Assembly: GCA_036172245.1 (NCBI GenBank)
Contig: JAYWIR010000019.1
Coordinates: 1,426,001 to 1,490,000, forward strand
Source of the DNA: Raillietiella orientalis
Taxonomy: Eukaryota
Length of the DNA stretch: 64,000 nt
Direction: 5' to 3'
Part shown: positions 15,391 through 64,000 of the stretch, one piece after another
Position numbering within the stretch: position 1 is the first letter of the stretch
Layout: every line of letters starts with the position of its first letter
Notes under the pieces: generated by a model
The model's input: the letters and a program-made list of their open reading frames with translations, nothing else
Databases searched by the model: none
What the model was told of the DNA's origin: nothing
Position numbers and translations under genes: made by a program

Positions 15391-16003
15391 AGACTGTGAA
15401 GTTGATACTTTGGGTATTTCGGAACGCCGTCGTCTCGACGGAGCTCATCCGTGGAAAGTGGACGCCCTTCGAATCCAGAGTGCGGTTTCCTGCCTGCATG
15501 GCGTGAGCACGTCCACTGGGCCAGCAAACGGTCACTCGCACTCCGCAGCTGGATTTCGCGCGGTTTCACTCGGAAGGAAAAGAACGGGCTCACTCCCTCG
15601 GGAGGCTGGAAGACGGATCTTTCGAGGCTCCTTGCGAGGATGAGAGCAGCCTGTCGGCTGAAGCATCGAACTGCGCGAGGGCGCCTTGAAGTCCTGTTCC
15701 TTTCCCTTCCTCTCCCCTCCTTTAACCTGAGTAAAACCACGTAAATGGTACTTTTTCTGTCTTGGCCCAAGGCAAGCATCCAAAGACCAGACAGCATAAG
15801 GAAGGACATTTCCCTTTCAAGATCCTCATGTGCATTCGAAGCACATAAATTGGAAGTTCGGAGCGAGCCTTGGACCAAGGCGAGTCTTCTCTTTGGTGGA
15901 TGTTCCCGAAGGACGAGTTGAGCCTTGACGAAGAGGCGGTGGAGCTTCCAGCTTCCAGTTCCCCACAGGTTGCTTCTTCTGGAGCCACCTCTGAGAGAAA
16001 AAA

Positions 16004-16150
16004 ACAACACTGAAATAGCAGCAATTCCAAGTGCAATTGTACTATCATATGCTACAAAAAGTACCGATAAAATTAATCCTAGCACTGTTAGTACAGGAAA
16101 AACCCGGAGTTGACTTAAATTCTGTCATTTATCGCGTTCTTATCAATATT
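16004..16150 (-). pseudogene. N-terminal fragment of a bacterial membrane protein (possibly Wolbachia SPFH/band-7), frameshifted
   Basis: AT-rich. Reads IDKNAINDR/LSQLRVFPVLTVLGLILSVLFVAYDSTIALGIAAISVL and starts a few nt after the M23 stop codon (operon-like spacing). The SPFH assignment is from recollection only. Confidence 0.45.
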
Positions 16151-16154
16151 GTCT

Positions 16155-16370
16155 TTAAACTTCTTTTCCACCTGAACTCTCCCTGTTGACTGTTTTATCT
16201 ATCTTATTTACAAATAGTTTCAACTCCCTTAATTCGTGATCAAGCAACTTCACTTTGTTTTTGTGCGTTATTGTAAGTGGATCAACGTGTTTACCGTTAT
16301 ATATAACTTCGTAATGTAAATGGGGTTCTGTGGCAACACCAGTGCTACCAACATAAGCGATGACCTGTCC
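16155..16370 (-). pseudogene. 3' fragment of a bacterial M23 (LytM) family metallopeptidase
   Basis: Translates as GQVIAYVGSTGVATEPHLHYEVIYNGKHVDPLTITHKNKVKLLDHELRELKLFVNKIDKTVNRESSGGKEV*, with the M23 G.TG...PHLHYEV..NG..VDP motif. 5'-truncated. Confidence 0.85.
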
Positions 16371-16371
16371 A

Positions 16372-16754
16372 AGGCTACCTCAGTTGGAAAAGAAAGCAAG
16401 GCAAGGTGATAAAGAATTAAAGAGACAACTTGATTTAATGCAAGAAGTCTTAGCTACTTTAAAACTCGGTAAGCACGCAAGGAGCTTAGAACACATCGAT
16501 AAAGATGAGATGAAGTATCTTCAATTGCTGACAACAAAGCCCGTTATGTACTCTGTAATGTCGAAGATACAAATACCACAACTGGCAATGAACTATCTAA
16601 AAAAGTAGAAAAGATGGCAGAAGAGAACAAGAGCAAGTTTTATTGTATCTCAGCAAAACTTGAAACAGAGATTGCAAATCTTGAAGAAGAAGAAAAAAAA
16701 CAGAGTTTTCTGTAAGAGTTTGGCTTGCAAGAGTCAGGACTTGATGGAGTAGCG
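16372..16754 (+). pseudogene. ychF: Internal fragment of bacterial redox-regulated ATPase YchF (Wolbachia/Rickettsiales-like), disrupted
   Basis: RLPQLEKKARQGDKE...LQLLTTKPVMY/(V)CNVED...ISAKLETEIANLEEEEKKQSFL*EFGLQESGLDGVA. Contains the YchF LLT.KP..Y..NV.E, ISA..E.EI..L and GL.ESGL motifs, a frameshift near 16551 and an in-frame TAA at 16713-16715. Confidence 0.9.
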
Positions 16755-19700
16755 CTTCCGGTGCATAGTTGCCTTCTTGTTTTCCGTTTTCCCATTTTTA
16801 ATTGGACAGCAACAGAGTGAGCGAGGTAGTTCACGTTCTCCGTCTAAGCTTCTTCTAGGGAAGCACGTCTTCTCCGGTAGCTAGTTTTGGAAAAAAAAAA
16901 ACAAAAACGACCAACACCAATTTGAATGGAACATGCAAACACCATCGAATCCCACATTGGATTCCATAAACAGAAAATGGTCGTCGAAGAATGCCTTGAG
17001 TGTTGCCCACTCACACTCGTCAGCGGTTGCTCAATGATTTACACGTCCTCAGCATTTTCTTCAGTGGAACCTCATCTCTCCTTTTTCTCTCCTGATACGC
17101 TTGGAGATGGGTAATCTGTCCGCGTTCCTCCCGAGGAAAACTCGTTGCTAGGACGGCATCGGCGTCGCGGGCAGAATCTCATCGGTGAGGACATGCGAGC
17201 AGATAACGGACACCGACACAGGAATCAAAAGGCAAGCAGCAATCCCAGGAGCAGATTGTCCTGCAGAACCACGCTGCGTGGGGGGTCAGATAGCGAAAGC
17301 CGACAAGAGCATTTCGGACTCGCGCGCTCTTCGAGTGAAGGATGACGCCTTGAAGTGATCTTCGGCAATGCGGTGCTTTGGAATCCTCACCGCTGGCTGG
17401 TGGCGTCGACGGTGCGGCTGGCTGCAAACGGCATCTCCTCCTCTGCCAGCCTGGACCGATTGGGAGGAGGAGGGACTCCTGGATTTTCGGGAGGCCAAGA
17501 TTCCTCTCCGTGAAGAGTTCTGCGCTTCCCTTCATCTCGGGGCGAGGCGAACGGATGCGAAACGCCGGAGGTGCAAGAAGTCCCTACGATGGAAATTCCT
17601 TCCGGCACGTGCAGCCGCATACTCCACAGCTGCTCTTCTCCTGCCATGCTTCCGCTCAAGTAGTCGATCCAGCTGTGCATAGGCTCTCTGCTGGGGTTGT
17701 GATTTTCTGCGAGAGGAAAGCACGTGGTATCGCTCCAGAAACTTCCGCTTATCTGCATCGCAGAGGAAGCTCCTGCCTGATGGTTTCTAAGAGGGGGAAG
17801 AGGGATCCGTCTTTCCCTTTCGAAGAGGTGAGAACCAAAAAGCGATCAGCCGTGATGCAGGGCGTACACACTCAGGTGTGTATGCATTCGACGCACGTTC
17901 ATGCGCGACGAGCAGAAAGCGCCATGTGCACGCATGTCTGTCTGGGCGTGTCTGTGTGTGTGTTTGTGCGTGCGGATGCGCGACACTTGTCTTGCGTACA
18001 GTTCCGTCATCACGGCTTCTCCACATCGTGGTCCATGGCGATGGTCCTGAGGTCGCTTACTTCAAACTTCTGCCCTCCGTGGAATGGAGGGTTCTGGACT
18101 CCGCTGGATTAGCAGGTGCCAGGAGAAGCAGACAAAAAAAACGCGCTTGGCACCACAAGTGAAAGAGGTGCGAAGACATGCAGTTTTCCCGGAGACGAGT
18201 GGGTGTCCAAAGCGAACCTATTTCTCTGCCAATGGGAGCAACCAGGCTCCAGAAAAAATAAAGGAAGGCTGCCAGTGATCGGTCAGTGGGGGGAGTCTGA
18301 CCTCCCGAAAAAGAGAGGCGGAAGAGATTCGTTATCCTTCTTTCCTCCCCCTCCGCCCCTCCGAGGATCCATCTGGGAGAGGGCAGGATGGAATTCTCCG
18401 GCACGCAGAGGGTCCCGGCTCTATGAGCGTGTAGGCACGCGCGTTCGGTGGAGACGCACCGAACCGGCGCCGCTATTGGAGCTCCCTCCTCCGTAGACGC
18501 TGACGGGTCCCCTACCGTCGAGCGGCGCAGTCAACTGCGAGGAAACTGGAAATCCGGGAGGAGATTCCAGCCGCAGAACCTCGGTCAAAAAGGCCTCCAG
18601 CAAAAATTCATGGAGTCTGTCGCCCGGTGAAGCGAAGGCTTCCATTCGTACACGAACAAACAAGTTGAGAACACAAGGAAGGTTCCCGAGGGAAAGCAGG
18701 GAGAGGTTCAAGGGGAGGAGATGATGAAATAAACAATAAAGGGGTGGAACAGGGGTCTTTGGTCTCGACCGTTTCTTCGTCCTAGAACCGGAGCGTGATG
18801 CCGGCGATCTCCGAACTTGACCTGCCCTTCCTGGTACAGCCACCCGCAGCCGTTCTCGCGCAGACGCAGGCTGCGTGTCCGCACTGCCCTCCCTTCTCCG
18901 TGGTGCAGAGGGACCTTGACTTCGGTGCGGGCTCGCCATCTCGTCGCCGCCACTGAGGCTACCGAGAGAGTCCACCGCTCTCGAAGAACCGCCGCAGAAG
19001 GTCGCTCGCGGCGTCCTCTTGAAGTGGGAGCGCTGAAGCCGGCCTCCTCCTGTGTTCGTCACCGTGTTCGCAGAGACCACCCTAGTCCGGAAGTGGGTGC
19101 GGCGGGATTGATTTCTCCTTCCTCGCACCTAGCGCATGGTCCTAAGCGCTGAACTGCACCGGAAGCCCTTGCGCAGGAGCAGCGACACCTCACGCTCCCA
19201 GTTTGTGGGGAGCACCGGTGCGTTCCAGCACAAGGGAAGGACCTCGAGTTCTTCAGGGGCAGCGCCAAGAAGACCGACGTTGTACCTTCGCTTGGGTAAG
19301 CGAGGTGACAGCATCCACCAGCTCGCGCGTGGTCCAGCCGCCCAGGAGTCTGGTCTCTCTCCTGCAGTGGCTCAGGACAAGTAACAACCCGCCGGCTGGA
19401 GATCTTCGTCGCTTGCCCTTAGGGTGAACGGCGCTGTTGCAAAGGGCGTGCTGGCTAGACCTACGGGAATTCTTGGCCTTTTCCTGCAGTGCATCTTTTA
19501 TTGGATGACCCAAAAGACGAAGTCCCTCCCGAGCGTATTTCTAATGGAATCGGGACGGAAGTCGTCCTCAGGTTATAGAGGTCGCTGTCATCGAGGGATC
19601 TGCCATGTTGGGAAAAACAACGGAGCAGGATGGGCAGAAGTGAATTGCGAGGTGCCATGCGATCCAAATTTCCCAACCCGCCCCGAGGATAGGAGCGATC

Positions 19701-22249: not shown

Positions 22250-22850
22250 CTGCCGCTCTGAAGAGCCGCCGTACTGCTGCGCTCTCCACGTGCAGTGCCA
22301 AGTGTTGTGGGTTCGAATCCGGCCCGGGGAAGGATCGACCAGCGTCGTCTCCTACGCAGGACGACGCTGGTTGGCCCCGGTTGGCTTCGGGTATGGCACG
22401 CCCCCCGTTGACAGACCGGGATTGGAAGTTGATCTTCCGGGATCCTCCCAGAAATGAAGGGGTCGGTTCTCTTCGGGTCCCCTTCCGGTTGGCAAAACGG
22501 AGCCGTCCTCTCCTTCTGGGACGGACCCCCATCGCGTACCATGGAGATGGCTGATACCCCCCTCGGTGAGTCGCCTCTCCAGAGTGTAAAAAGCTCTCTT
22601 CTCCCTTCGGGATTCTCTCCAGTGGAGGAAACCAGGAACAGCTCCCTAACGGGTGTCCTCCGGAGAAGAAATTCCAGGAGCGAATCCTTTCCGAGTTCCC
22701 TTCGGAGACAACCAGGACGAAGGCTCCCTTCCGGGTTCCCCTTCCAGGCGTAAGAGGAACGGATTCCTTACTCCAGAGCCTTCCTGGATTCATAGGGTGG
22801 TCCCTCCCGGAGTACCATCTATAACTAGAAGAGTTACGCGCGCTCTCGGG
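22250..22850 (+). mobile_element. tRNA-derived SINE-like family copy, apparently full length
   Basis: B-box GTTCGAATCC at 22311, then GGAAGGATCGAC, GACGCTGGTTGGCCC, the internal array with CCCTTCGGG hairpins, and the family 3' end TAACTAGAAGAGTTA. Confidence 0.75.
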
Positions 22851-23177
22851 TGGCAGGGACCGTGTCAAAGAGAGTCGTGAGGTCCCCCTGTGGAGACGAG
22901 CGGCTCCCCGGCACTCGTGGAAAACCGAAAAAGAGGGAAGATGGAAGGAAAGAGGATTTCCATCATCCCGAAAGTGCGGTAATTAAGGGAAGAAGGCGAC
23001 CCTTCCCCGCACCTGCTGTTGGACTGTGCTGCCCTCCGACCCCCTTGGCATCACCACGTGACGACCCTAGGATTTCCAGCGAAGGGCCCCCCAGGGGCAT
23101 TTGGAAACGCCTCTTTGAGCGTACCGCGCTGCCGCTAGCCACGTCCCTTGCGGTTCTCCGCTGCCCCGTCTGCGGGA
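22311..23177 (+). repeat. 867-bp direct duplication, copy 1 (copy 2 at 31445-32311)
   Basis: Constant 9134-bp offset. Only two substitutions seen (GGCAGGGAC/GGCATGGAC and AGAGTCG/AAAGTCG). Identical ORFs appear in the track (22454/31588). Confidence 0.95.
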
Positions 23178-24750
23178 CGGTGGTGGCTTGGAAAGTTCAA
23201 AAGAAGAGGGTCGAAACGGCAGGAACGCCACCCACTATGCGCGAATCTTCCTGAGGACTGCCTCGAGATGACCTCACCTGGGCGAGACACGGAGAGAACT
23301 TGCGGGATCCTAAACAGGATGCAGAGGACGCCTGGAAGCGTACTATGATCACTTCCTGGGTTCCCTTCCCCCCTTCCTCCCCGTGTATAGCTTTCCCTCG
23401 CCTATTTCGTTCATTTGTTTTTGCCTCCTTTTCCCCCACGCTGTCGTCCCAAACCTCGCCGGTCTGCGCACCGGTCTTCGGCAGGTTCACTGCAGGCGGT
23501 GGCATCAATGTATTTTTATTACTTTACGTAGGAAATCTCCGGGAATAACCGGGCGATTATCATCCAGAGTTTCAACAGCGGGTTGTGCCAACGGGTCACG
23601 AGAATCCTGGATTCTCCTCTGTCCAGGGAGGGGTCTGTGCTCGTATACCAAGGATCGGACGCTCCTGGAACTCTTGTGGTCGCAGTTAATCTGCACAGAG
23701 CTCTCGTTTGCTTCGATCAGGAGCTCCCTCTGGAGATTTTGGAACGCATGGGATTCCTGGCCGTCTTCCTGGCCTATCTGCGTTCCAGCTGACGCAACGC
23801 GCTAATAAATATCTGTTTTCAGCGGACGGCATGTGTTTGGCGTGTCCGTTCGCCAAGGCGTAAGGCAGGGTGACAGCCTGAGTCTCCTGCTCTTCAGCAT
23901 TCACTTCGAGTTGATTCTGAGAGCATACAGAGAGACTCTGACAACCTGCAGAGTCCGTTACCCTGGCACGCCTGCCTTGTTAGCCTATGTGGACGATCTT
24001 TTGCTGCTGCTCTCCAGGACCGTCCCGGCGTCAGCACTCGAGAGCTTCTTCGAGTTGTCAAGTCGGTGCTCAGACCTTGAGGACTAACAGGACGAAGTCG
24101 TCATCGGTACTGGATCGGTGCGGCGTAAACCGGACGGTCAGACTGGGTTCGCCTAGGGATCCCCATAGACGGGTACTTCAAGTACCACGGCGTTTCGTTG
24201 GGGGACTTCTGCGTTACAGAAGTCTGTTCCTGCCGTCTCCAAAAAGTAGAGATATCACACAGCCTGTTCCAAAACGACAGGTTTCAGTTGCCGGAACGGG
24301 CCGCGGTGTGGAACTCGTTTGTGGCTGTTCCCCTCCGCCCCCTGCTTTCTGTTTTCCCCACCCCTCTTGACATCAAGAGAAGGACCGATGACCTCCTGAG
24401 AAAAGCCCTGTGGGGCACAGGGAGTTCCCGAGTCCGACTCAAAGACTTGTGTGCTCCTCGTTGGGATGGTGGACTGGGCCTTTTACGCGGGAAAGGATGG
24501 AGCATCAGCTCCAGTTCATAAGACTCGCCCTCGCAGCGATATTGTGGACCACGCCTTGGTGCTCACCAGCACGTCTCCTCGCGAAGAGAGCAACTGGCTG
24601 CGAGGGAATTGCGTCCCTCCTCGTCACTCGCTAGGGATTGCTGAGACATTGTGGATATCAACTTCTCCAGAGAGTTGCCCTAGTGGACGACAAATGGATC
24701 TCCTCCCTTCCCGTGAACTGAACTTCCTGGTTCCAAGAGTTCGTCTTCGC
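23150..24750 (+). mobile_element. Decayed Tx1/L1-clade LINE ORF2 (reverse transcriptase)
   Basis: WKRTMIT, LEILERMGF, GVRQGDSLSLLLFSI, AYVDDLLL and ALWGTGSSRVRLKDLCAPRWDGGLGL in canonical order, with stops and frameshifts. Confidence 0.88.
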
Positions 24751-25399: not shown

Positions 25400-27900
25400 A
25401 AGAGGGGAAGTGGGCCCCCCTCTTGCAGCAGGGAAAAGGGTCAGAGTCGTTTCGTGCCTCCAGGGAGGTCTCTTTCATCGGCAGACTCCTCTCCTGGAGA
25501 ACTGCTGACGTAGATCTGCACAAACTCGACGAGTACATCATGAGAATCTATGGTGGATAATTTCCGGACGCACAGGGGTCCGCCATGACTCAGGGTGCTC
25601 GTCCCGGCGAGGGACGTAAAGTTCAAGGGCACGAGAAAAAAGTGTGAGCTTTTCCACCGCTTCGGTCAGCTTCTTTAGCTTCTGGGCTTCAACCAGCTCA
25701 AGGATTTCCAATCTGTACAAATGGTCTAAAGTGCCAAATGTTGCCACCAGAGGGAAGGAAGAGATTTGGGGCGATCGGCTGAACCCAGGATTCCCCTCTA
25801 GGAGAGAGAATGCAACAGTCATCTGCCATGGATCTGTTTCATCCACGAAAAGTGGTATTAACGGTTTTGGGTATTCGATTCATCTCCGTGTCTTCGGCTC
25901 ATCTCCAGGTCGGTGGCTCTCCTGCGGCACTAGCTCGCAGCTCCAACGGACGTAACGAGTTTGTGAGAGCTGGATCGGCAGACCGTTAATACGTTCTTTC
26001 GTTGCCGCTGACCTTGCCCTTCGTCGACCTTGGCTCCACCATGGCTCCTCCTGAAAACACTCCTTCCACCTTCCCGTTAACCCGAGCAACACTCGCTGAC
26101 GTATCCTCATCGGTTCCAACCACACAGCTTGGTCCCGTTCCTCGTCTTTTTCTCGCATCGCTGCTGTCTGCCTTTGCGGGCGGGTTCGTCCTTGGATTCC
26201 AGGAAAAGGGTGCGAGTCATCCGGTAGCCGGGGAATGTCCGTCCCCGCGGCCCGGATGACTCTTCCAAGAACTTTGATCTCAACCAAAAGGCCGAGAAGG
26301 TGGCTGACATCGCAGCTACATCTCAGTTGTCAGCTTTCCATGGAGGTCTGGGGTCATGAGTGCTCGTTCTCGAGGACGTGGTCCGATCCATTCCAGTTTG
26401 GAATGGATCGAACTGAAGTGGATGGAATGCTATTGCACCTGGAATTGCCTCCAGGTGCAATCGCGGCAGAAGACTCATTCAGATGGAGCCACTCGTTGCC
26501 TGCGTCTCTGGAGATCAACCTACCATGCGGCAATCTTGCCCGTGCGGCCTCAGAAGCAGCTCCGCCAGCCGGTAGGAAAAGCGTGACCGAAATCGGGAAC
26601 AGCCCCGCCAGTGTTTCACAGGTCAGGAACGTCTCTGCGCCCAGTGCTCACCTGGGAAGATTGTGGAAACTTCGTGGTCTGTCGGTTCAAGGTCGCCAGA
26701 ACCAGAACAAGGGGCATTTCATTTTTACATGTCCCTGATATTTGGTGGAGCATAGTGTTCCGTTTTTTATTGATTCTTTGAGGCCATAGCTGATTAGTTC
26801 TTGAACGTCTTTGGTAAGGTTAATGATGACTATTTTTTGGCCGGCGTACATGTAAGATGCATCTGCTTTTTTGCAGTTATTAAGGGAGAGGGCGTCGTAC
26901 TTTAGGTAAATATGCTTGGCTATAGTAGTTTTCCCGGAGTTTCCTTAGTAGTCGCTGTACCAGTGTATGTCTCTGTCGTTTGGATCTTTTGTTATTATTT
27001 CTATCAGGTTTTTTTGCCATATTTGAAGTTGTTTTCCTTCCATAGGGTCAGATTGGAAGTGAATCGTATACTGTCAGTTATGAAAAGTCTATGTTTGTCA
27101 TAGATTTCTCTCCAAATCCATTTTTCTGTCTTTCCATCTAATATCCATTGTTGTATCTGAGAAAAAATAGTTTTTAATGTGTTGGTTATCTTAAGTTTAC
27201 CTGTTTATGTATAGATTGTTTGGATTCTGTTTGAAGTGCACCATAGGTCCATGGATTTTCATCTTCTTTTTCGCAGTATTGTTTGGCTTGTTCTGGTGTT
27301 CTGCTGCATGATGGGCAGAATGCAAGCGTCTTGTGCGTTCTTCCCGCGCCGTGTGGCTCGAGTGGAGGTGAAAGTTCATTGCAAGCATTCCTGGTAGCTC
27401 AGCGGGGAACCAGGTTTTCAGGAAGGAAGGACAGTGAGGTTCCCGGAAGGCAAAGGAACGACGGGCTTTCGCCGGCGATCCTTTCCCGCAAACATCCCTT
27501 CCCTTTACCCTTTGGCACAGCGTCAAGGGTCAGGGCAATGCGCGATCTATTTACACATCACTGCCTTCCAAGCAAAAATCTCACAGCCGCAGGGGAAGCC
27601 GGGCTTCCCACCTGGTCCCTAGAACATCTCGTGCGCGGGTGGACCGAGTGAACTGGAGACGCCATGACCGCAGCGCTCCCTTGCCTGTTGGACAAGAAAG
27701 AGCAGCGGCCTTTCAGCTGGCTGGACATTTTCTTCTTCAGCACCGAAACACTGGCGTCCACGGAAAATATTTCCGGCGACAGATGCAAAGAATGCCTGGG
27801 ATGATTTTTCATGATGTCCCCAGTCTCGGCAACCTCTGGGCAGCGGAGGCTCGTAATTTTCTGCTTGTGGGTTGCTCACAGGGCGTCAGCCGTCCATTGC
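25400..27900 (+). mobile_element. Decayed R2-like non-LTR element interrupted by the Rep insert
   Basis: LDEYIMRIY, LSAFAGGFVL (decayed AFADDLVL), LARA..., HLGRLWKLRGLSV on the left of the insert; AFF/PAPCGSSGG, LPTWSLEHLVRG and STETLAS on the right, collinear with R2-type ORF order. Confidence 0.5.
26712..27305 (-). pseudogene. rep: Endogenous CRESS-DNA virus Rep fragment (nanovirus/alphasatellite-like), disrupted
   Basis: RTPEQAKQYCEKEDENPWTYG (HUH motif III; YCEK at 27278-27267), then after frameshifts QIWQKNLIEIITKDPNDRDIHWYSDY*GNSGKTTIAKHIYLKY (Walker A at 26944-26927)...KKADASYMYAGQKIVIINLTK...ISYGLKESIKNGTLCSTKY. Sharply AT-rich relative to the flanks. Confidence 0.88.
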
Positions 27901-30570: not shown

Positions 30571-31444
30571 ACCGAGGCATCTTTGCAGCTTGTGTCCAGG
30601 CGATCATCTCGTGCCTGGACACAAGTGGACTGTCCAATGCGAACAAGGAAGGCTGATGGTGGACGAGAGCAGCTTTTCGTGAAGACGTCAGCCGACTGAG
30701 AAGTGGTTGATTGTTGGGTGTTCCCGTCTTCCCGTCTGTAGTTGTTCCGTTCGCTTCCGCGCCCGCCATCATCAGCGTAATGAGAAGATCGTTATGGTCT
30801 TCTAAGTCCATCCCCGGAGCCAGCAGCCTGAGTGAAGCAAAAAGTCCAAAAGTAGGGCCCTTGAACTCCGGAGGTCCCCTTGCGACGTAAAGAAAGGAAG
30901 GAGGAAAAAAAGGAAGGAAAGAAGGAAGAAATTGGCTGTGTAAAGTTTAAATTTAGGACTTCATCAAGCCCCAGCACATTTCTTAAATCACGCGTTGCTC
31001 GTAACAACCAGCCAGAAAAGCAGAAGAAAAAAAAACTTCTTCATCACCGACTTTAAATGATGATTGAGGACCGAATCTTCTCATCCAGTCTTGTTCTGAG
31101 GGAGCGAAGTAGCTTCGAGGGAACGAGAACGACGGAAAACGTCGAGCCTTGTTCTTGCGAGGGGGATAAGGGGGAGGGGCGATCCCGGATTGGAGAAAAA
31201 GTAGGCGTTCCGTTCGTACGGATTCCAGGGAAGGCGCGGCGTGCGATTTCGACTCACCTCCCAGAGATGGGAGCCGAGCAAGCTGACGAAAGAAAGATGG
31301 CAACTTCCGGGATGAAGGAGAGAGAGTCGAAGCCAGAGCAGAGGACCCACGAGACCGACCGAACGCCTTCGAACGCAAAGATCCTCCATACCAGGTGGAC
31401 ACGGTCGAGAACATGGACTCCGCTCGCGGTACCGAGCGTTGCGA

Positions 31445-32311
31445 GTTCGAATCCGGCCCGGGGAAGGATCGACCAGCGTCGTCTCCTACGCAGGACGACG
31501 CTGGTTGGCCCCGGTTGGCTTCGGGTATGGCACGCCCCCCGTTGACAGACCGGGATTGGAAGTTGATCTTCCGGGATCCTCCCAGAAATGAAGGGGTCGG
31601 TTCTCTTCGGGTCCCCTTCCGGTTGGCAAAACGGAGCCGTCCTCTCCTTCTGGGACGGACCCCCATCGCGTACCATGGAGATGGCTGATACCCCCCTCGG
31701 TGAGTCGCCTCTCCAGAGTGTAAAAAGCTCTCTTCTCCCTTCGGGATTCTCTCCAGTGGAGGAAACCAGGAACAGCTCCCTAACGGGTGTCCTCCGGAGA
31801 AGAAATTCCAGGAGCGAATCCTTTCCGAGTTCCCTTCGGAGACAACCAGGACGAAGGCTCCCTTCCGGGTTCCCCTTCCAGGCGTAAGAGGAACGGATTC
31901 CTTACTCCAGAGCCTTCCTGGATTCATAGGGTGGTCCCTCCCGGAGTACCATCTATAACTAGAAGAGTTACGCGCGCTCTCGGGTGGCATGGACCGTGTC
32001 AAAGAAAGTCGTGAGGTCCCCCTGTGGAGACGAGCGGCTCCCCGGCACTCGTGGAAAACCGAAAAAGAGGGAAGATGGAAGGAAAGAGGATTTCCATCAT
32101 CCCGAAAGTGCGGTAATTAAGGGAAGAAGGCGACCCTTCCCCGCACCTGCTGTTGGACTGTGCTGCCCTCCGACCCCCTTGGCATCACCACGTGACGACC
32201 CTAGGATTTCCAGCGAAGGGCCCCCCAGGGGCATTTGGAAACGCCTCTTTGAGCGTACCGCGCTGCCGCTAGCCACGTCCCTTGCGGTTCTCCGCTGCCC
32301 CGTCTGCGGGA
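31445..32311 (+). repeat. 867-bp direct duplication, copy 2 (SINE copy plus ~330 bp 3' flank)
   Basis: Near-identical to 22311-23177 and starts exactly at GTTCGAATCC. Confidence 0.95.
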
Positions 32312-33789
32312 TGGTGACTGCCTGGAACTCCCAGAAGAGGCTGGAATAGCAGGGATGGCGCAAATCTTCATGAAGATCGCCTCCAGATGGCCCCACTGTG
32401 AAGCCACTGTGAAATGCACCGTCAGAAGGACTAGTGAGGGATCCGGGACGCGAGCGGTGTAGGATGATGGAACGGGAATGGAGCGCCCACGACGCCGGCT
32501 CGGCTTACGAAACCCCGGAGACGGAGTCGGTTTCCAGAGATACAGCGTAGATCGTGGAAGTTGCGCGCGCATCGAGATGAAATGGGAATGGCTCCTGTGA
32601 CAAAAACGAAGTGCTTGCGATCGACGGCAACGACAGGAAATGCCTTAGCGGGGCCACAGTCGGCGCCGCAGCAGCGTCTGCTAAGGGGAGCGGCCGACGT
32701 CGCCCGTAGATGATGTCTTTACGAGTGGGAGACGTTCCGGGAAGCAAAAGAGCTGAACCGAAATCAAGTGCCGTCTCCTTCCGCGCCAATCCGATTAGAC
32801 ATCACGGAATTCTCGGGAAAGTCTCGCGCCCAAGTTATAATCAAGCGCGTCTGTGGTTAAAATACCCCGCCGTCGTGGAAGTAAAGGACTGAGAAGGAAA
32901 AAGAAAGAAGGATGAGAAGGGGAGGAGGAAAGAAAGGAACCTCCACAGTAAATTCCTTGAGGATTTGATTAACCATTCATTGGCTGTATTTTGATTGGCT
33001 CCAGAGGCTGCAGCCGGACCCTGAACCAGGTGGCCGGGATGGTGGCTGCCTGGCATTCCTTGTGCGGGAGCCGAGAGGGCGATTGACGGTGGAAACGACT
33101 GACGCCGCGGAACTTGCAAGAGAGTCCGTCCGATGGGATCCCCCCAAACCCGGCGACGATCGAAATCGCACGGAAGAGACCGATTCACGGGAAAGGAGTT
33201 CAGGCGCGCCGGTTGGGAGAGGAGCACATTCTGGGGCTCCGTGAGTTCACGGAAGCTGAAACGAGGGATGTCGAGATCGGAAGTTTCAGGGGCTCGTCCT
33301 CGATGCACGAAGAAAGCGTACGGCGGCATGGGGAATTCCCGAGGGCGACCAAAGGTGGTACGGGAACCGCAGCCAATGTGATGATGGGATCGACTGGTCT
33401 CCCCCGCGCACAGACGTCGGGGACCTTCACGAGAATACCTCGCGAGAGAAGGAGGACGAAACGCCTGCTGCGGGGAAGCAGAAGGAGCGGGAGCGTAGAA
33501 GCCAGTGGTGGGAGGGTATGGGTCTCTGAGGAAGGGTGAGGAGGCAGCCAAAACCTCGGGCCGAGATGCATGTACCTTGCAGAAGAAAAAAAACTGCCGA
33601 AGAGCTTCCTCCAAATCACCGAGAGACAACCTTCCGTATGATCCGGGGATCCTTTGGGGTTATTTCCTATCCCCCTGTTTTTTTTCCAGTTTTTTTCCTT
33701 TTGCGGGGTGGGGGTTCACCAAGTGCTGAAGAACCGTTCGCCGCCTTAGGAGAGGCGCACGGAGCTCTTTGATGCTGTTTACGCCACTC

Positions 33790-33984: not shown

Positions 33985-34830
33985 CAAAGCACTGCAGGCA
34001 CTCGGCCCCGTTCCAAAGAGACAGGTTTCAACTGCCAGAACGGGCCGCGGTGTGGAACACGTTCGTGTCTCTCCTTCTTCACTCCCTGCTTCTTGTTTGC
34101 CCTCAGCCATGCAGCATTAGAAAGCGGACAAAGGACCTCCTCCTGATCGTCTGTGGGGCAAAGGGAGGTCCCGAGTCCGCCTAAAGGAATTGTGTGCTCC
34201 GCGCCGAGACGGTGGCATAGGCATTTCCTGACACTGGAGCTAACGGAGCTGCATCTCCAGTAAAGAACACTTTTCCTAGTGGCGAAGCTGTGGCGCACGA
34301 ACTGGTGCCAACCTGCACGTCTTCTCGTCAAGCGAGCCACCGACAGTGTGGAACTCGCGTCCTTCCTTGCGCGCCGTCCACGTATTCTCATATACTGTGG
34401 ACTGCACCTGCGGAAGATGGTCACGCTGGCCAGGAAAAACGGACGGATCTCGTGCCGCCCCGCTAACGGTGGTGCCTGGTTGCAGGAAACCGTTCGCACG
34501 TGAGCGAGGATCCAGGAGCCAAGCACGGAACAGGTGCGACGCTCCCTGTACGCGCGTAACAACTGCACGCTCAGGTCGATCCTGGAAGATCCCGTAAAGA
34601 GTTCATGGGTAGGCAGACCCTCTCTCGCCGCCGCGCTGCCCCCCTTTAGGGAGCACATGGGCAGCAACCTCGCGGAAAAATGCGAGGTTACTGTGGAAAT
34701 CTCCGGAAGGAGAAAAGGACTGGGCGAATGGACGAAGGGACAGCCCATCGACGTCTTGCGACCCCGATTGCTCGACGTCATGGACTTTTACACTGGGGAG
34801 TGCCACTGGGTATTCCGGAGGAAGATCTTC
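33985..34830 (+). mobile_element. Second decayed Tx1/L1-like LINE ORF2 fragment
   Basis: FQRDRFQLPERAAVWNTFV and RVRLKELCAPRRDGGIG are homologous to 24265-24480. Confidence 0.8.
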
Positions 34831-49100: not shown

Positions 49101-49469
49101 ACAACGACAGAAATCGTGAACAGTTAGATAAAAGTCGTCTCGAAGCCAACACTTTCATACAGAAAGGATACTAAATAGAAATAGTACTTCTATACCGAAG
49201 AGCGTCACATTTTGAAATATTGAAAAGGTTTTTCCTTATGAATTTCCTGAGATTTTAATGGGATATTTGAATAAGCGATGAATACTTGCAAGAAGCATTA
49301 CTCAGTGATTCATGACTGAAGAAACTGGTATTGATTTATTAATTACGACAACAAGTCTACTGATTTTATGGAAATTATCGTTTATGACTTGCTGGAATTT
49401 GATACATTACTTTCATTTGATGAATGCATTTGCCAAATTGCAAGGATTGCACTTCCTTAAATGAGAATC
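49101..49469. repeat. 369-bp inverted repeat, left arm (right arm at 50237-50605)
   Basis: ACAACGACAGAAATCGTGAAC...TAAATGAGAATC is the reverse complement of 50237-50605; one mismatch seen. Confidence 0.96.
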
Positions 49470-50236: not shown

Positions 50237-50605
50237 GATTCTCATTTAAGGAAGTGCAATCCTTGCAATTTGGCAAATGCATTCATCAAATGAAAGTAAT
50301 GTATCAAATTCCAGCAAGTCATAAACGATAATTTCCATAAAATCAGTAGACTTGTTGTCGTAATTAATAAATTAATACCAGTTTCTTCAGTCATGAATCA
50401 CTGAGTAATGCTTCTTGCAAGTATTCATCGCTTATTCAAATATCCCATTAAAATCTCAGGAAATTCATAAGGAAAAACCTTTTCAATATTTCAAAATGTG
50501 ACGCTCTTCGGTATAGAAGTACTATTTCTATTTAGTATCCTTTCTGTATGAAAGTGTTGGCTTCGAGACGACTTTTATCTAACTGTTCACGATTTCTGTC
50601 GTTGT
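50237..50605. repeat. 369-bp inverted repeat, right arm
   Basis: See left arm. Confidence 0.96.
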
Positions 50606-57000: not shown

Positions 57001-60000
57001 GAATTGTGAATTTGTTCTTCGGCAGATTCCTCGAAACACAACAGATTTATACAAAAAGGAAGGTAAAAACTCCGTTGGTGGAGCTGATGCTTTTCTATTT
57101 GCTTTCTGTCGTGGACGTCAAATGCTCGTACGCGTTTATATACACGAAACTTCACCGTACACGTGCTTCCATCCCGAGAGGAAGGATTATTCGGGCACCG
57201 AGATGAAAATCAAACAGCTGCATCGTGCATGGGGACCCGGGCATCCTCTCGGAAGGATGAATAACTTCAAAGTGGCTTCCTCGTCTTTTTGGAGAACACG
57301 GGAAATTTCGGAATGGAAATTGCAAATTCGGGAACGAACTCCTTCGAGTGCTTCGAAGCACCGAGGGCAGATTTAGCCATCTCGAGCCATCTGGCAAGTG
57401 GGAGATCAGAGGGTGGCTCTTGCAGGTTTCCTCAGGGCATCTGATTCACATTATGGGCGGTGGTGCTCTTTCGGAGAGACCGATGTTGCGTTGAAAGTCT
57501 TCCTCCTCTTTGCAACTTGCTGCTCTGATTACCAAGCTGTTGCAGCATCCCGCCAGAGTGATTTCTTCCCCACCATTGGGTTTCAGCCGACCTTCGCCCA
57601 GGATGCTTCTTTCCTTTTCCAGCTTCCGATTTCCTTCTTTCCGAAGACCGGCTAAACCTGACGGACAGAGGCCGCGGCTGAGGAAGCATTTCAGCCGTCT
57701 CCCTTCCCCCTCGTCTTCCTCGGCAGCGATCCTCCGCCTCGCCGCTCGTCCCATCCTGCGCTCCGGGGACGTCGGGCGCTCGTGAGGGCTGCGCCGATTC
57801 CATTCCCCTCCCTCCCTGGACGGATGGCCGTCCGGAGGTCTGTTCAGTCCCTGACGGCCACTCGCGCTTCTATCGGAAATAGCCCGGGACGGAACAGTGC
57901 GGCCTAGCGCAGTCTCCTCGCCCCGGCCGCTACGGGCTCGCCGGCGAATCCATCCCCCGCCTCGCTGGCATCCCTGCCCGCCTCTCCTGAGACGGGAGCG
58001 GTGGCACGCGCGCCCTCCTCCTTCGCAGGCGGGTCGTGCAGTGCACAGTGCTGCCTCCCGGACAAGACGAGACTCGCTCCGAGCCAGGGAGCGAAGGTAG
58101 AAGAAAAGAGGGAGGAAGAGGAAGGGAGGAGGACGAGAAGGAAAGGGGAAGGAAGAGAGAAGGACGACAAGGAAGGGTGGAAGAGGAGGAAGGGAGAAGC
58201 AAAAGAGGAAGGACCAGTGACTGTGGTGACCAGTGACATCCCCTCCAGCAGCGCACTCTCCGTACCCGCCTCATCACGCTGCTTACCCACCGGCACTGCT
58301 GCTCAGCTAGCGAGTGGCACTCGATCAGGGGCGGACGGTGGCTCAGATAGTCGGTGCCAGCAGGAAAAAGTAAAGACGGGTCTCCCCTTCGCAGGGTGCG
58401 CAGAGGAGACGAATGGCGGCGCAAGCGCTTGGTCCACCTGGCCCGCCTATCGCGACCAGAAGCCCGAGGGTGCACCAACGATGGCAACTCCTACTACCTT
58501 CGAGAGCGGTATTCTCTGAGGATCCTCCCTGCCCTCTAGCGATCCGACCCCCCGGTGCCACGCTTTGAGGGATTTGAATGTTCCCCCATGTTCCGTTTCC
58601 ATCGCCTGTCCGGTTCCCGTGGTTACCCAGGGAACACCGTTTCCCTGGCTCCGGCCCTGGGCGCCGCCACCCGTCTGGACTCACGAGGATGCGGGAGCGG
58701 GCGTGAGTCGGATAAGGTTGCCACAGTTACCCCGCCGCGTCCTCGCAGAGGGAAAGCTCCCCCACGCCGGATTGGCGCCGATGGACGGAGCAGGAGCGGG
58801 GCGCGACCAGCGACTGCCGGTGGCTCGAGCACCCCCTCGACGGATCTTGCCCCGAGGCGGAAGCGGAACATACCACGCCAGGACCCGGGATCCTCCTCGA
58901 AGGCGAGTCCCGGGTCTCTCCTTCCCCCCTCGGGGCATGCTCTTGACGTCGCATAATGCACCAGACCGCAGCAGTCAGGGGAGGGTCCCCTCCCTCCGCA
59001 CGAATGGCCAAGCGGTAGCAGGCTCTGCTGTTTCCGCTCTCCCGCGCAGGGGATACCTTGCGTGGCGTCGCGCACGCAGCGGACCACTGGGGACACTGCC
59101 CATCCACCCCTCCTCCTCAAAACAAGCGCCCTGAGGCGAGGGCATCGTCCTTCCTTCGCCAGCGTTGAAGGTCAGGTCGCCCCGCCCAAGCCCGCCCCCG
59201 CGTCTCTGCGGTCACTCTGCGCAAGCGGATACCGCGGACCCAGGGTCAGCAATGCCGCTTCGCTGCCTCCTCCCGCGCCCGCCTCCACGGTCACCGACCA
59301 CCGTCCTGCGGCGGTTGCCCAGGAAAAAAAAGGCGAGGCTTCCCGCCGCCGCAAACGCGGTCGGGGCTTCCGGCGGCGGCGGCGCTGTGAGCCGACGTCC
59401 GCCCCTGTCCGCGACGGGTCCGACCGCGCGCTTCCGGTCGCGTGCCCCGACCTCCCCCTTGTCCGCGCTCTGCGGGCAGGCGGCCCGTTCCCGCCCAAGG
59501 ACGGACGGACGTCGCGGCGGCGGCGAGCTGCGGTTGCGCACCTCTCCCTTTCGCTCCTGCGCGGAACCGCCGCGAGCAGGCAGACTGCAGCGCCTCTGCG
59601 GCGCGTGCGCGCACTCCCCTTTCTTCGTTCCCCCGCCGAGAGGGGGAGAGGTGAGGGGGTGGGGATCCCTCCCTAACCGAAGGTCTGTCCGCCTGGGTGG
59701 TGAGGAGTGGAGGAGCGTCGAAGTCCCTTCCTCAGCTCCCTCCACCCCCGTGCTCCATCCTCGACCCGCTCTTGACCTCCTCCTGCCTTGACGTTGCCGA
59801 CCGGGGTTGGAAGTAGGTGCCATCGTCCGCGCCCCTTTGAAGGTCGCCCACCGGGGAGCGAGCGAACTGTCACGGGGGGAGGGGGGAGGAGCCCTCTGCT
59901 CCCCCTCTCCCCCCTCTTTTGTCTCGCTCCTTCCCCGTCAGTTTCCGCCGCCGTCACAGAGGCAACGTCCGGCGCGCGCCCTGAGGCGACAGCATCCCCC

Positions 60001-62191
60001 GCAGCATCCCCTCCACACCGGAAGCGCACCGTCGCGGCAGCCGCTGCTGCCGCCTGGAGAGGCTGTCCGGAGGCCCCGATATGCGCGCGCGCTCGGACCC
60101 TACCCCACTCTCCCCCCGACGACCCAATCTACCTGCTATCTAGACTCGCAGGAAAATAGAAGTCTTTCGCAGCTCGCCTTCCGACTAGCGCAGGTGGTCG
60201 GCCCCTCCTGGCCCTCCAACCCACCCGCGGGAGGAGGAAACGGCTGCCGCCTTGCCGGGAAAGGGGAAGGGGGAGGGGGAAGGACGATGAGGAATTCGTT
60301 TCAGGTCGGGCACGGGCTACCCTGGCGCGTGTTGCCCGCGCCACCTCCGACGGCGCCTCCCCGTAAGTGTTCTTGAGGGGAGGAGAGGGGAAGGGACGAA
60401 AGAATCGCGTCTCTGGGGCGTGCCGCTCTCTTCCCGGCGAGGCGGCCAGGGGATCCTCCTGTGTAGTCGTTCGATCCCGCGAGCGAAAGGCGGGAAGAGG
60501 ACAGCAGTGGACTCGAAAGAGCCCGCCGGAATCCCGGGCACCCAAGGATGCCCTCCTCCAGCTCCCCGGAGGGGAACGGCCCCTTCTCGGGAAATGCCGT
60601 CCCTCCCCCGCGAGCATGGCGGATCCGAAAGCTGGGGCTCCTGGGGTGACCGCCGGTGAGAAGGAGGGCCGGGCACCGGCGGCAGCCCTCCGCTAGCCTT
60701 CTAGTAGCCACCGCGCCGCGGCAGCCTCGCGGTCTCCCAGGGCGACCGCCGGTACGCGCCGGCGGGGACCGTAGCCCCGCGGCGGCGTGTCGGCGGGCGC
60801 AGACGGGCGGAACGGAGGTTCGGGCAACGCCCACCGGTCAGACATCACTGGGTGGCGCGCACTGCCGCTGGACCGTGCCCGGTTCTCCCCTCGGGAGGGG
60901 GGGGGGAGCGCACTCGAGCGCGCGCGGGCCGGTGACCCTCGGCAAGGGGCCCACGCAGTCGTCTCTGGTGGCTTCTCACGGGCGATCGAGCGCCCGGCGC
61001 GCGCACGCGCGGGGGGCCGCCTCGGGGCGGCGGCGCTTCCTTTCCCGCTTTCCCCAGGTCCCGCCTCCTTCCCTGCGCCCCGCCTTCCTATCCTCTCGGC
61101 CTCTCCGGCTCCTCCCGCATAGATCGCCAGCGGCCAACCGCCCGCCCGTTGGGGGGATGCGGAGATGACGGAGTTGCCCCGAGCGGTGCCGATCGGGTCC
61201 TCCTGGGAACGCTCCTAGCGACCGCGGCCCGGGCTGGGTCGGCTTCCGGGGAGCGGCGCGGCGCGCCCAACAGCCCTGACTGAGGCCTCGGCCCCACGGA
61301 CTGACCTCCATCCCTTCCTATCCGTCCGTGCCGAGTTTCCCATCGCGCCGCTTGGAGGCGACACCGGCGGTAACCTGACAGGAGTCCCGCTGGCGGGGCG
61401 ACCCGACCTGGACTCGCAAAAAGAACACCGAAAGTCCCTCGGGGCATCCCGGCACAGGAGGGATTGAATCCCGGCTGGTCCCGAGCAGGGGGACGCGTTG
61501 GATGCGGAGTCATTGAATACTTCGCGGGCTTCCCGCCGCCGACGTGCCGGGGGGATCCAAGGGGGTGCCGAAGGACACGCTCGACGGCGAGGAGGAAGGG
61601 ACGTGGTTAGGCGGAGACATGGGGCGGGACGACCCGGAGGCGACGTCCCACGTCTGATGCCAGAACGGGACCGACCTTTCCGAGATGACCACGGCCTGTG
61701 GCTTTCCGGCGCCGCCGTGCGCCGCCAGCGGGAGAGAAAAAAACCCGTGGAGGCCATTTGGAGAGGAGAGGAGTTTTCGGGTCAAAGGCTGGCGAGGTGG
61801 TCGCTCCAGAAGAGAGGATGTGGCGCCATCCGCTCGCAGCCCGCGCTCGAGCGCGTATCGCGCGCGCTCGACGGCGCCGGCTTGCTCCTCCGCGACGTCA
61901 TTGTTCCTGTGGCACCGGAGGACGGTGTCACGCAGGCACTCCCGACCAATGGAGAAGCGCGAAACGGCGCGCCGCCATCCCCTGCCTCTCGATGAAGCCG
62001 TCCAGCAAGGGCCGGGTTGAAAGCTGAGCTCTCGGTTTCATGGCGACGGGAGGACGATCTACCAAGCGAAGGGGCAGTTCAAGAGAACTCGGCTACACCC
62101 CTCCACTGTTATATCACCATGACAGGATTCCGCCGCCCCTCTACCACGATTCTATTGCCATCTTCTACCGCCATTCCACTACGATTCCCGC

Positions 62192-62787
62192 CCGCTCTGG
62201 CGGCCAAGTGAATGGTGACCTCCTCACGTTGTAAGAAGCGTTGTGGGTTCGAATCCTGCTAGGGGAAGGACCGATGCTAAGAATAGGTGGGCACGCCGTG
62301 GGTTTCGGGTTTCCCTCCCCGCAGGATGAGGCTAATAGGCCTATTCGGGAGCGGCCTTTGAGGAAGCAGGATGCTTCCGTTGAGTGGCCTTCCGGGAATC
62401 GAGTATCCCAATCGAGTATCTCCTCCAGTTGTGAAGATGGAAGCGTTCCGTGAAGCTGATCGATACCTTCCTCGGGGGAAGTTCCATTCCAGAGTGTCAG
62501 GAAGCGCGCTGATCCCATCAGGGAGCTCCCTTCAGAGAAATCGGGAAGTGTTACTTCCCGGTTCTCTTTAGAAGAGTAAGAGGGAGCGGTTCCTTTGTGG
62601 GTTCCCTTCGAATAAGAAACAAGTGTGCCCTCCCCTCCGGGGGGTCCCTCCAGGGAAAATAAAAAAGAGGTTACCTTCGGGGTTTCTCTACCAAGCTTGA
62701 GAGGAACCGACTCCTTTCTCAGGAGTCTTCCTGCATCCATGGGGTAGTCCCTACAAGCTACAAGGTGGCTCCCTAAATTGAAGAGCA
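62192..62787 (+). mobile_element. tRNA-derived SINE-like family copy, apparently full length
   Basis: A-box-like TGGCGGCCAAGTGAATGG, B-box GGTTCGAATCC at ~62246, GGAAGGACCGA, the internal array, and the 3' end CCCTAAATTGAAGAG. Confidence 0.75.
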
Positions 62788-64000
62788 CTGCTACTATTCT
62801 ATTACAATCTTCCTGCCGTTCTATCACCATCTTGCTTATGTTCAAGTGCCATTCCGTTACGATCCTGCTGGTGTTTTCTTTTAATTTGAATGCGTATCGA
62901 CTGGGCGGATGTACTGCGTGTGCTGCTGACTTGGTGTTTGCTGGTGTGGAAGACCTGCTGCGAGTGCAGGAGACCTCAGAACCGGCCATGAGGAGGGGCG
63001 CGAAGGGGGACGTCAGCAGTCTCGACGCGATTCCTAAGCGTGGGACAGGAGCGCACGCTCGCTTGTGTGCGCGCGTCGGAGGAGCCAAGTGGCAGGGCGG
63101 CGAGGGAGGCGCAGATGTGGGGCGCGCGGCGACTGTAAGGAGGGAAGGCGCTCCAGGGGGTGTTCCCTCACGGAAGAAGGGAATCCTGCTGGAGGAGACG
63201 GGAGGGGTGGGCGTAGAACGCCCCACCCTCTCTCCGTTCGAGGAGGGGGACGATGACGACGAGACCGGAGGTCATGCTTCCGGGAAGCGCCGCTCAAGGC
63301 CGCGAAGGGGGTCACGCCCGCCCCCTCGCTGCAAGAAAACCGGACTGCGCCTCGCGGGGCGGCGCACGCACCCGGACGACCTCTGCTGCGGGAGGTTACC
63401 CGGCTGCCCAAAGGGCCGGGGAGCAGCGCCCGCTTCCCGCGTACCTTCAGGCGAAGCGGAGGTGGTCTCGATGCCCTTCCGCCTTAGATCTCGGGGGAGC
63501 CCTCGCATCGAACCCCGGGCGACCAGCACGGCGAGCACTCAAACGCTCTCAGCCGTGGCAGTGCGGTTGGCATTCCGTTGTTGGTGACCGCGGGTCACGC
63601 TCCGAGCTGACCGCGGCAAACGAGAGCGAGAGCTGGCACGAAGCTCCCAGTGGAGCCTGGAGGGCAGCTCCCAAAGAAACGCAGAGCTCACAAATGCGTG
63701 CGGCCTTCCTGAGAGGACCAATGGGAGAGGAGGAACAAACGCGAAGGGCCCATCACCGACATGGGGCCCCAAAGGCAGGAGGAGATGCGGGGAGGGTCTG
63801 GTTTCCCGGCTCGCACCGGCGCTGCACCACCCTATTCGAGCATTCCTCCCTTCCAGGCCGGGGTCGCAGCATCCTGGACGTCGGTCATCTCGCCCGGAGG
63901 TACGGTCGACCGGGCTGGACTTCCGGGACCTTTCGCTGGTTGGGATCCCCCAGGCAACCGCACGGAGGATGAGAACCTGTAGTCTCGGGACGGACTCACC

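Follow-up and report, generated by a model that had tools for sequence, protein, structure and literature searches.

A degraded fragment of a CRESS-DNA virus Rep gene in a GC-rich, gene-free stretch of DNA

Results

The Rep island and its reading frames

The 64-kb stretch of contig JAYWIR010000019.1 analysed here (the window, at its full length) holds an AT-rich island at 26711-27305, whose minus strand reads, over three frames, as the middle part of Rep, the protein associated with replication, from a virus whose circular, single-stranded DNA encodes it (a CRESS-DNA virus), with HUH motif III, the linker, WQ...DR.I.W, Walker A, Walker B and KNG...STKY. The guanine-cytosine (GC) content of the island is 31-40% in 200-nucleotide (nt) windows, compared to 55-60%, or about 56%, in the flanks, and both ends of the Rep homology fall at the switch in composition (about 26711 and 27299-27305). 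The reading is broken by one TAA stop and by two frameshifts of the same sign (-1/+2), situated near 27204-27198 and near 27073-27061. The open reading frame (ORF) track misses the island, in which no open piece exceeds 85 amino acids (aa). The motifs quoted for this place in a preliminary description of the window were all found on the minus strand, and our reading also agrees with its count of one stop and at least two frameshifts and with its remark that the gene is invisible to the ORF track. The Rep pieces and other features of the window are listed in Table 1.

Table 1. Positions of the Rep pieces, repeats and host genes in the window.
Feature	Position	Strand	Description
Rep piece A, ..SRTPEQAKQYCEKEDENPWTYGALQTESKQS..	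27204..27305	-	End of the HUH endonuclease with motif III, then ..PWTYG; profile positions 99-132, E 1.5e-4; tblastn
Rep piece B, KLKITNTLKTIFSQIQQWILDGKTEKWIWREIYDKHRLFITD..	about 27064..27198	-	Variable linker between nuclease and helicase; frame differs from that of A and C; between both frameshifts
Rep piece C1, DPMEG..IWQKNLIEIITKDPNDRDIHWYSDY	26948..27061	-	Start of the superfamily 3 (SF3) helicase domain; profile positions 181-216, E 9.5e-12; alignment A2
In-frame TAA stop	26945..26947	-	Three residues ahead of the first Walker A glycine; direct reading
Rep piece C2	26711..26944	-	Profile positions 218-292 of 347, E 9.2e-31; alignment A2
GNSGKT, in piece C2	26927-26944	-	Walker A
IVIINL, in piece C2	26816-26833	-	Walker B position
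YGLKESIKNGTLCSTKY, in piece C2	26738-26788	-	
11-nt perfect inverted repeat, ACCAGAACAAG / CTTGTTCTGGT	26701-26711 and 27287-27297		At both edges of the Rep island; right arm inside the Rep coding sequence (TPEQA)
Dispersed repeat, direct copies	22284-23277 and 31418-32396		95% identical part of two direct copies of a GC-rich repeat; GC-rich block
Dispersed repeat, direct copies	24263-24621 and 34007-34367		70% identical part of the same two copies; GC-rich block
Inverted repeat pair	35.0 and 38.0 kb		92%; GC-rich block
369-nt inverted repeat	49101-49469 and 50237-50605		100% complementary (99.7% by blastn); 767 nt between the arms
HEATR1/UTP10 gene	41.7-48.2 kb	-	Pfam U3snoRNP10, HEAT_HEATR1, BP28CT; GT-AG introns of 51 and 55 nt read directly
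CDK5RAP3 gene	52.4-54.0 kb	+	Spliced host gene in AT-rich DNA

Homology of the island to Rep proteins

The helicase piece C, a 128-aa query in which the stop was read as X, was compared by phmmer with 1.84 billion representative proteins. It matched 3497 proteins at E<=1e-3 and 721 at E<=1e-10 (best 4.2e-35), with 34-47% identity, and the matched proteins are mostly 260-400 aa long. Of 24 matches picked along the length of the list, Viral_Rep (PF02407) is present in the N-terminal half of 20, and RNA_helicase (PF00910) was recognised in 13. A Rep profile of 347 positions, built from 116 matches of 260-400 aa, was then compared, with every filter disabled, to the full set of 2198 stop-to-stop segments in the window. 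Just three segments matched, all of them in the island and collinear on the minus strand. As the sequences of the profile had been gathered with the helicase piece alone, the match of motif III (profile positions 99-132) is independent of that search. Furthermore, dozens of relatives align T..QA..YC.KE....GPW.YG to 27299-27213 by tblastn. Piece B has no profile match and a single collinear tblastn match, that of P0228, whose residues 68-107 fall on piece A and residues 107-151 on piece B.

Piece C2 is 37% identical by BLASTP to P0001, the best match, and the best identity of the fragment to any sampled virus is 44%. No NCBIfam family was found for the Rep pieces, the 85-aa and 128-aa pieces gave nothing relevant against PDB by phmmer at E<=10, and a word-indexed protein search with the 128-aa piece gave no match at E<=0.01 among 131 candidates. 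Piece C was modelled confidently by AlphaFold2, with a predicted local distance difference test (pLDDT) score of 83.5, and Foldseek found nothing for the model in PDB at E<=1e-3. On this sequence evidence, the motif set and the homology far exceed chance, and the island is a degraded CRESS-DNA virus Rep. The preliminary description had proposed comparing the reconstructed protein with hidden Markov models and sequence databases, and this comparison returned relatives bearing Viral_Rep and no Helitron-type helicase.

Within the island, the segment 27299-27240 reads TPEQAKQYCEKEDENPWTYG in a single frame of the minus strand. It includes YCEK at 27267-27278, aligned to the YC.K of the relatives, so that motif III is kept together with its catalytic tyrosine. 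IWQKNLIEIITKDPNDRDIHW lies in the second frame of the same strand. Piece C as read (27061-26711) runs ..SDPMEGKQLQIWQKNLIEIITKDPNDRDIHWYSDY, TAA, GNSGKTTIAKH...KIVIINLTKD...YGLKESIKNGTLCSTKYQGHVKMKCP, and its last aligned residue is a proline (26711-26713) matching the P of the PHV.VF.N motif of the relatives in alignment A2. The G and the GK of Walker A are invariant in the same alignment, and GNSGKT is present in the fragment. At the Walker B position, N stands in IVIINL where D is found in most relatives, an exchange also seen in P0047, P0023 and the second of the two copies contained in P0001. From motif III to WQ there are 85 codons in the island and 82 positions in the profile. Because the matches are collinear and this spacing is preserved, the three frames represent one unbroken ancestral reading frame, not exons.

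Altogether, the fragment extends over profile positions of about 99-292 of 347, that is, 56% of the profile. Positions 1-98, which include HUH motifs I and II, are unmatched across all 64 kb, and the cut lies upstream of motif III. At the other end, homology stops at position 292 of 347, and no counterpart was found in the island to the PHV.VF.N...DRW of the relatives, with motif C as well as the arginine finger. The fragment cannot encode an active nuclease or helicase.

Two wider delimitations of the element were considered and rejected. A few tblastn alignments extend the homology into the GC-rich flank (GRTHKTL at about 27350-27324 versus ..AH.E.. of the relatives). The profile alignment disagrees with them, and the similarity is ascribed to chance. 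A longer element split by insertions of the flanking GC-rich repeats was dismissed because no other Rep piece is present elsewhere in the window.

The further copies, capsid genes and motifs I and II to which the preliminary description had drawn attention were not found in the 64-kb window. Neither the profile search nor the repeat search revealed a second Rep piece or copy there. When 137 non-Rep ORFs of small IMG/VR relatives (described below) were compared with the window by tblastn, the best E for a capsid remnant was 0.07. Six sites for the origin nonanucleotide NANTATTAC occur in the window, all with stems of at most 3 base pairs (bp) and none near the Rep island.

Relatives of the Rep fragment

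The ten best phmmer matches lie on contigs of 1.3-4.4 kb. A profile search that returned source names listed 120 proteins, nearly all on contigs of 1-4 kb. The sole source names among these 120 were 'uncultured marine virus / CRESS-DNA virus Rep endonuclease domain' and 'replication associated protein [Cressdnaviricota sp.]', and none of the 120 listed matches bears the name of a nanovirus or alphasatellite. Many of the listed matches are Logan contigs of 1.0-1.4 kb, which may be partial.

In IMG/VR, where alignment A3 served as the query, relatives are encoded in 341 of 434 candidate stretches, and the best 80 loci were kept; the 85-aa piece on its own yielded no more than one weak locus, situated on a contig of 30 kb. 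Among these best 80 loci, 71 are shorter than 4 kb, one of the 71 being the end of a 12.6-kb contig. Terminal direct redundancy, as in circular assemblies, is present in 65 of the 71 small loci, and 52 of them carry the NANTATTAC nonanucleotide atop a stem of at least 7 bp (TAGTATTAC in 29 cases, CAGTATTAC in 12). A second ORF of about 250-300 aa is found in most of the 12 IMG/VR loci listed. The relatives are true circular CRESS-DNA virus genomes of 2.0-2.7 kb, which are unclassified. In a FastTree phylogeny of 272 helicase segments (unlabelled), the fragment groups with P0062 and P0111, a weakly supported placement (0.38 and 0.81) above deeper nodes that are unresolved.

The best match, P0001 (354 aa, on a 3.9-kb contig), consists of two tandem copies of the helicase half and lacks a nuclease domain. 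Its database entry gives it as a hypothetical protein from a Methylococcales metagenome-assembled genome (MAG), and it is probably a mis-binned or rearranged CRESS element. The same helicase type was also observed on IMG/VR contigs of 18-30 kb, which account for eight of the best 80 loci (L111, L131, L132, L143, L145, L148, L158 and L160). In L111 and L143, the helicase lies in ORFs of 440-462 aa, and neither these ORFs nor their neighbours have a Pfam family. Such large-contig helicases may represent a Rep or a helicase taken up by larger viruses.

Genomic setting of the island

The composition of the window is split. The part at 40.7-57.2 kb has 37-40% GC, and the other 47 kb (1-40000 and 57200-64000) has 52-71% GC, with the peak of up to 71% at 59-61 kb. 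The Rep fragment is flanked by GC-rich DNA on both sides and shares one 64-kb stretch with the spliced genes HEATR1 and CDK5RAP3. In the GC-rich 47 kb, no Pfam match was obtained for any of the 152 ORFs (16 + 136), and Rfam gave no match in the whole window. An ESM Atlas search, performed beside the CDK5RAP3 search, returned just sub-threshold bacterial clusters.

The GC-rich block contains dispersed repeats, comprising two direct copies of a GC-rich repeat, with parts that are 95% and 70% identical, and one inverted pair (Table 1). The direct copies bracket the Rep island at a distance of about 4.4 kb on either side, and each bracketing copy holds an open frame of roughly 378 aa without a Pfam family. 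Transposon terminal repeats and transposase were not found in the window. Another inverted repeat, 369 nt long, sits in the AT-rich DNA between HEATR1 and CDK5RAP3 and could be a foldback element or an assembly artefact.

At the edges of the Rep island itself, there are no target-site duplications or transposon ends. The two edges are marked by the 11-nt perfect inverted repeat given in Table 1, which may be the signature of a templated ('snap-back') junction, or chance. When 19,950 pairs were drawn at random from the window with this spacing, 67 scored as high; the frequency carries little weight, since the edges were picked after the repeat had been seen.

The GC-rich part holds only two AT-rich islands longer than 300 nt, the Rep island and one at 15940-17044, which is bacterial DNA and lies 10 kb from the Rep island. 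Three loci of the Wolbachia clade (an uncultured Wolbachia, the Wolbachia of Litomosoides sigmodontis and a Rickettsiales MAG) align collinearly to its segment 15995-16370, with nucleotide identities of 82-85.5%, and the next best matches reach only about 50% at the protein level. This segment represents the end of an M23 peptidase gene with its downstream DNA. It adjoins fragments of YchF on the opposite strand, which are frameshifted (TIGR00092 positions 144-258), and the mosaic spans 15995-16745. In the three Wolbachia-clade loci, YchF was not found within 3 kb of the M23 peptidase gene. Judging by these matches, 15995-16745 is a nuclear insert of Wolbachia origin, a mosaic pieced together from fragments that are short and unrelated. 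To our knowledge, nuclear insertions of Wolbachia are confined to arthropods and nematodes. Given this mosaic 10 kb away and the 51-55 nt GT-AG introns of a host gene, the host is probably an arthropod or a nematode, which lends indirect backing to the animal host assumed in the preliminary description.

Discussion

In regard to the classification of the fragment, the preliminary description is right in kind in reading it as an endogenised CRESS-DNA virus Rep, very probably in an animal, and over-specific in its label 'nanovirus/alphasatellite type'. The master Rep (M-Rep) of Nanoviridae and the Rep of Alphasatellitidae have a helicase half similar in style to that of the fragment, with WQ..L....PDDR.I.W, G..GKT/S, one Walker B aspartate that precedes ..R, and S.KY, and these Reps are encoded on circles of about 1-1.4 kb with no capsid gene on the same molecule. 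The nearest relatives of the fragment, on the other hand, are two-ORF genomes of 2-2.7 kb, as opposed to components of roughly 1 kb. In PDB, their profile matches the 94-aa nuclease domain 2hwt (E 1.9e-22), which we take to be a nanovirus protein. The nuclease domain of the relatives also resembles the Rep of porcine circovirus 2 (PCV2; 7lar, E 2.3e-29, profile positions 5-157). However, this profile match ends at the nuclease half, and the helicase half of the fragment has no match to PCV2 Rep at E<=10 nor any match among PDB sequences. This lack of similarity to PCV2 Rep in the helicase half speaks against membership in Circoviridae.

The helicase half is thus not circovirus-like, which is in keeping with the class named 'nanovirus-like' by Liu et al. 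2011 (PMC3198968). In the sections of that paper cited here, nanovirus-like Reps are described as having the N-terminal half in common with circoviruses, and not the C-terminal half. This pattern agrees with our data, since the nuclease half of the relatives matches both 7lar and 2hwt and the helicase half matches nothing in PDB. Inference of a family from a fragment dominated by the helicase is further limited, as the cited part of Kazlauskas et al. 2018 (PMC5923481) puts chimeras between both domains at 71% of the unclassified Reps.

The known systems near to the fragment include the uncultivated circular genomes of 2.0-2.7 kb from IMG/VR (e.g. L082-L093). Their Rep helicase half is 31-42% identical to the fragment and presents the same order of features, namely WQ...PDDR.I.W, GN.GKT, IV.FD..R and NY..E..KNG..S.KY. 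They differ from it in being complete, with a stem-loop origin and a second ORF, neither of which occurs in the window, and in their composition (median 46% GC, compared to 35-38% in the island).

The condition of the fragment has parallels in the literature. The cited sections of Liu et al. 2011 (PMC3198968) report degraded, truncated Rep-like insertions across eukaryotes, outside the named virus families. By description, these elements resemble ours in being Rep-only and mostly truncated, with stops and frameshifts, and their hosts range from protists to animals, including nematodes. Likewise, in the cited part of Kinsella et al. 2020 (PMC7493932), elements endogenous to Entamoeba and Giardia serve to assign a host to an uncultivated CRESS lineage. 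Those are, however, complete Rep and Cap integrations with 73-84% nucleotide identity to exogenous viruses and a firm host call, compared to a fragment with at most 44% protein identity in our case. As far as the cited parts of Rosario et al. 2018 (PMC6186406) and Kinsella et al. 2020 (PMC7493932) indicate, the use of endogenous CRESS elements to assign hosts is well established in invertebrates and protists.

Very probably, the island is a non-functional endogenous viral element, i.e. about 590 nt out of the central part of a Rep gene whose source was an unclassified CRESS-DNA virus (Cressdnaviricota), residing in a gene-free, GC-rich and repeat-bearing stretch of the chromosome of an invertebrate associated with Wolbachia and decayed since its arrival. 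The endogenised CRESS-DNA virus Rep put forward in the preliminary description is upheld by the phmmer matches, the share of Viral_Rep among those sampled, the three collinear profile matches and the chromosomal DNA on both sides. With respect to the mechanism, a double-stranded replicative form of the virus, or a fragment of one, would have been present in a germline nucleus. The viral DNA would have been fragmented and an internal piece joined into a chromosome break by end joining, after which the inserted Rep piece would have decayed neutrally. End-joining capture is favoured over Rep-catalysed integration because only an internal gene fragment is present and the Wolbachia island is also a mosaic of short unrelated pieces, and because both ends are blunt in composition and lack target-site duplications and transposon ends. 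We infer that no Rep-catalysed integration of a whole genome took place.

Several points weigh against this explanation. The integration is read from the assembly, and end joining is a proposed mechanism. The frameshifts might be assembly errors, although neither of them sits in a homopolymer run. Pfam assigned no relevant family to the four separate pieces or to the 128-aa read-through. In the comparison of the piece C model by VIA-align, the SV40 large T helicase came first (Z 5.6, root-mean-square deviation 4.8, 111 residues), tied with many AAA+ proteins at Z of about 5. The fold matches of the model are generic, of the P-loop/AAA+ kind, and they are consistent with an SF3 helicase without being diagnostic of it. 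As for the host, the C-terminus of CDK5RAP3 has a single database relative, a bird protein with 32% identity.

An artefact of the assembly, in which reads of a contaminating CRESS virus from gut content or reagents were misjoined into a host contig, could account for the abrupt switch in composition at both edges of the island and for the 11-nt inverted repeat found there, as such repeats can form in chimeric amplification products. We nevertheless consider it very improbable. The Rep piece has more than 26 kb of non-viral DNA on either side, and a stop, two frameshifts and the presence of only an internal fragment are unlike a replicating contaminant. In addition, the Wolbachia island in the same block is equally fragmentary and 14-18% diverged from known Wolbachia, as expected for old insertions. 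A non-viral source, either a CRESS-like plasmid from bacteria or symbionts or a host transposon derived from a Rep, is just as improbable. It is suggested by the Methylococcales MAG origin and the tandem helicase copies of P0001, by the eight large-contig loci among the best 80 in IMG/VR, with the family-less ORFs of L111 and L143, and by the treatment of plasmid-derived Rep-like genes in the cited sections of Liu et al. 2011 (PMC3198968). Nonetheless, the P0001 contig measures only 3.9 kb, most relatives are circles of 2-2.7 kb with a second ORF and a nonanucleotide stem-loop of the eukaryotic CRESS type, and the window lacks transposon terminal repeats, a second copy and a transposase. Since the relatives are circular CRESS genomes of 2.0-2.7 kb, a plasmid origin is unlikely, and a Helitron, which differs from them in size and in helicase class, is ruled out. 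The Rep/Hel protein of Helitrons is an HUH nuclease fused to a Pif1-type superfamily 1 (SF1) helicase, encoded by a multi-kb transposon. The relatives of the fragment, by contrast, are proteins of 260-400 aa with PF02407 and PF00910 encoded on circles of 2-3 kb, and as PF00910 is of the SF3 type and not of the Pif1 type, Helitrons are excluded in kind.

It could also be asked whether the fragment persists on account of some use. In arthropods, PIWI-interacting RNAs (piRNAs) commonly arise from endogenous viral elements, and the GC-rich block could be a piRNA-type source locus, storing pieces of invaders, in which the Rep piece yields antisense small RNAs against the virus. The CRESS and the Wolbachia DNA lie 10 kb apart as the sole AT-rich islands of a 47-kb stretch that holds dispersed repeats and no Pfam match in its 152 ORFs, all of which would suit such a locus. 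Neutral persistence in gene-free DNA, however, gives the same pattern without any function, and retention for this purpose is of all the alternatives the most improbable. A broader proposal, which we hold to be unlikely and yet less so than the preceding alternatives, sees the GC-rich 47 kb as a germline trap for invader DNA, similar to a piRNA cluster, in an arthropod or nematode. The trap would have stored pieces of a CRESS virus and of Wolbachia, with the Rep piece acting as an inherited memory, in the form of small RNAs, of a DNA virus. If this were true, a large clade of uncultivated CRESS viruses of 2-2.7 kb with TAGTATTAC origins would gain its first host anchor through this piece. The sharing of one gene-free, GC-rich block by the Rep and Wolbachia islands invites the idea of an invader-collecting locus and does not establish it.

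Under the preferred explanation, a captured and decayed piece of a viral gene, the island is an ordinary viral fossil, since endogenous and degraded Rep fragments have been catalogued in many eukaryotes from 2010-2011 onwards. The preliminary description had inferred that germline integration links a virus lineage to this animal host. This link holds at best at the level of a family or above. The value of the fragment is limited accordingly: it is short, dead and at most 44% identical to sampled viruses, so that the group to which the host is tied by it is broad and unclassified. Its only unusual aspect is that a Rep fossil shares a gene-free, GC-rich block with a mosaic of Wolbachia DNA. Most CRESS-DNA viruses are known from metagenomes only, with the host unknown, and a germline fossil of this kind would mean that such a virus once reached the germline nuclei of an invertebrate lineage.

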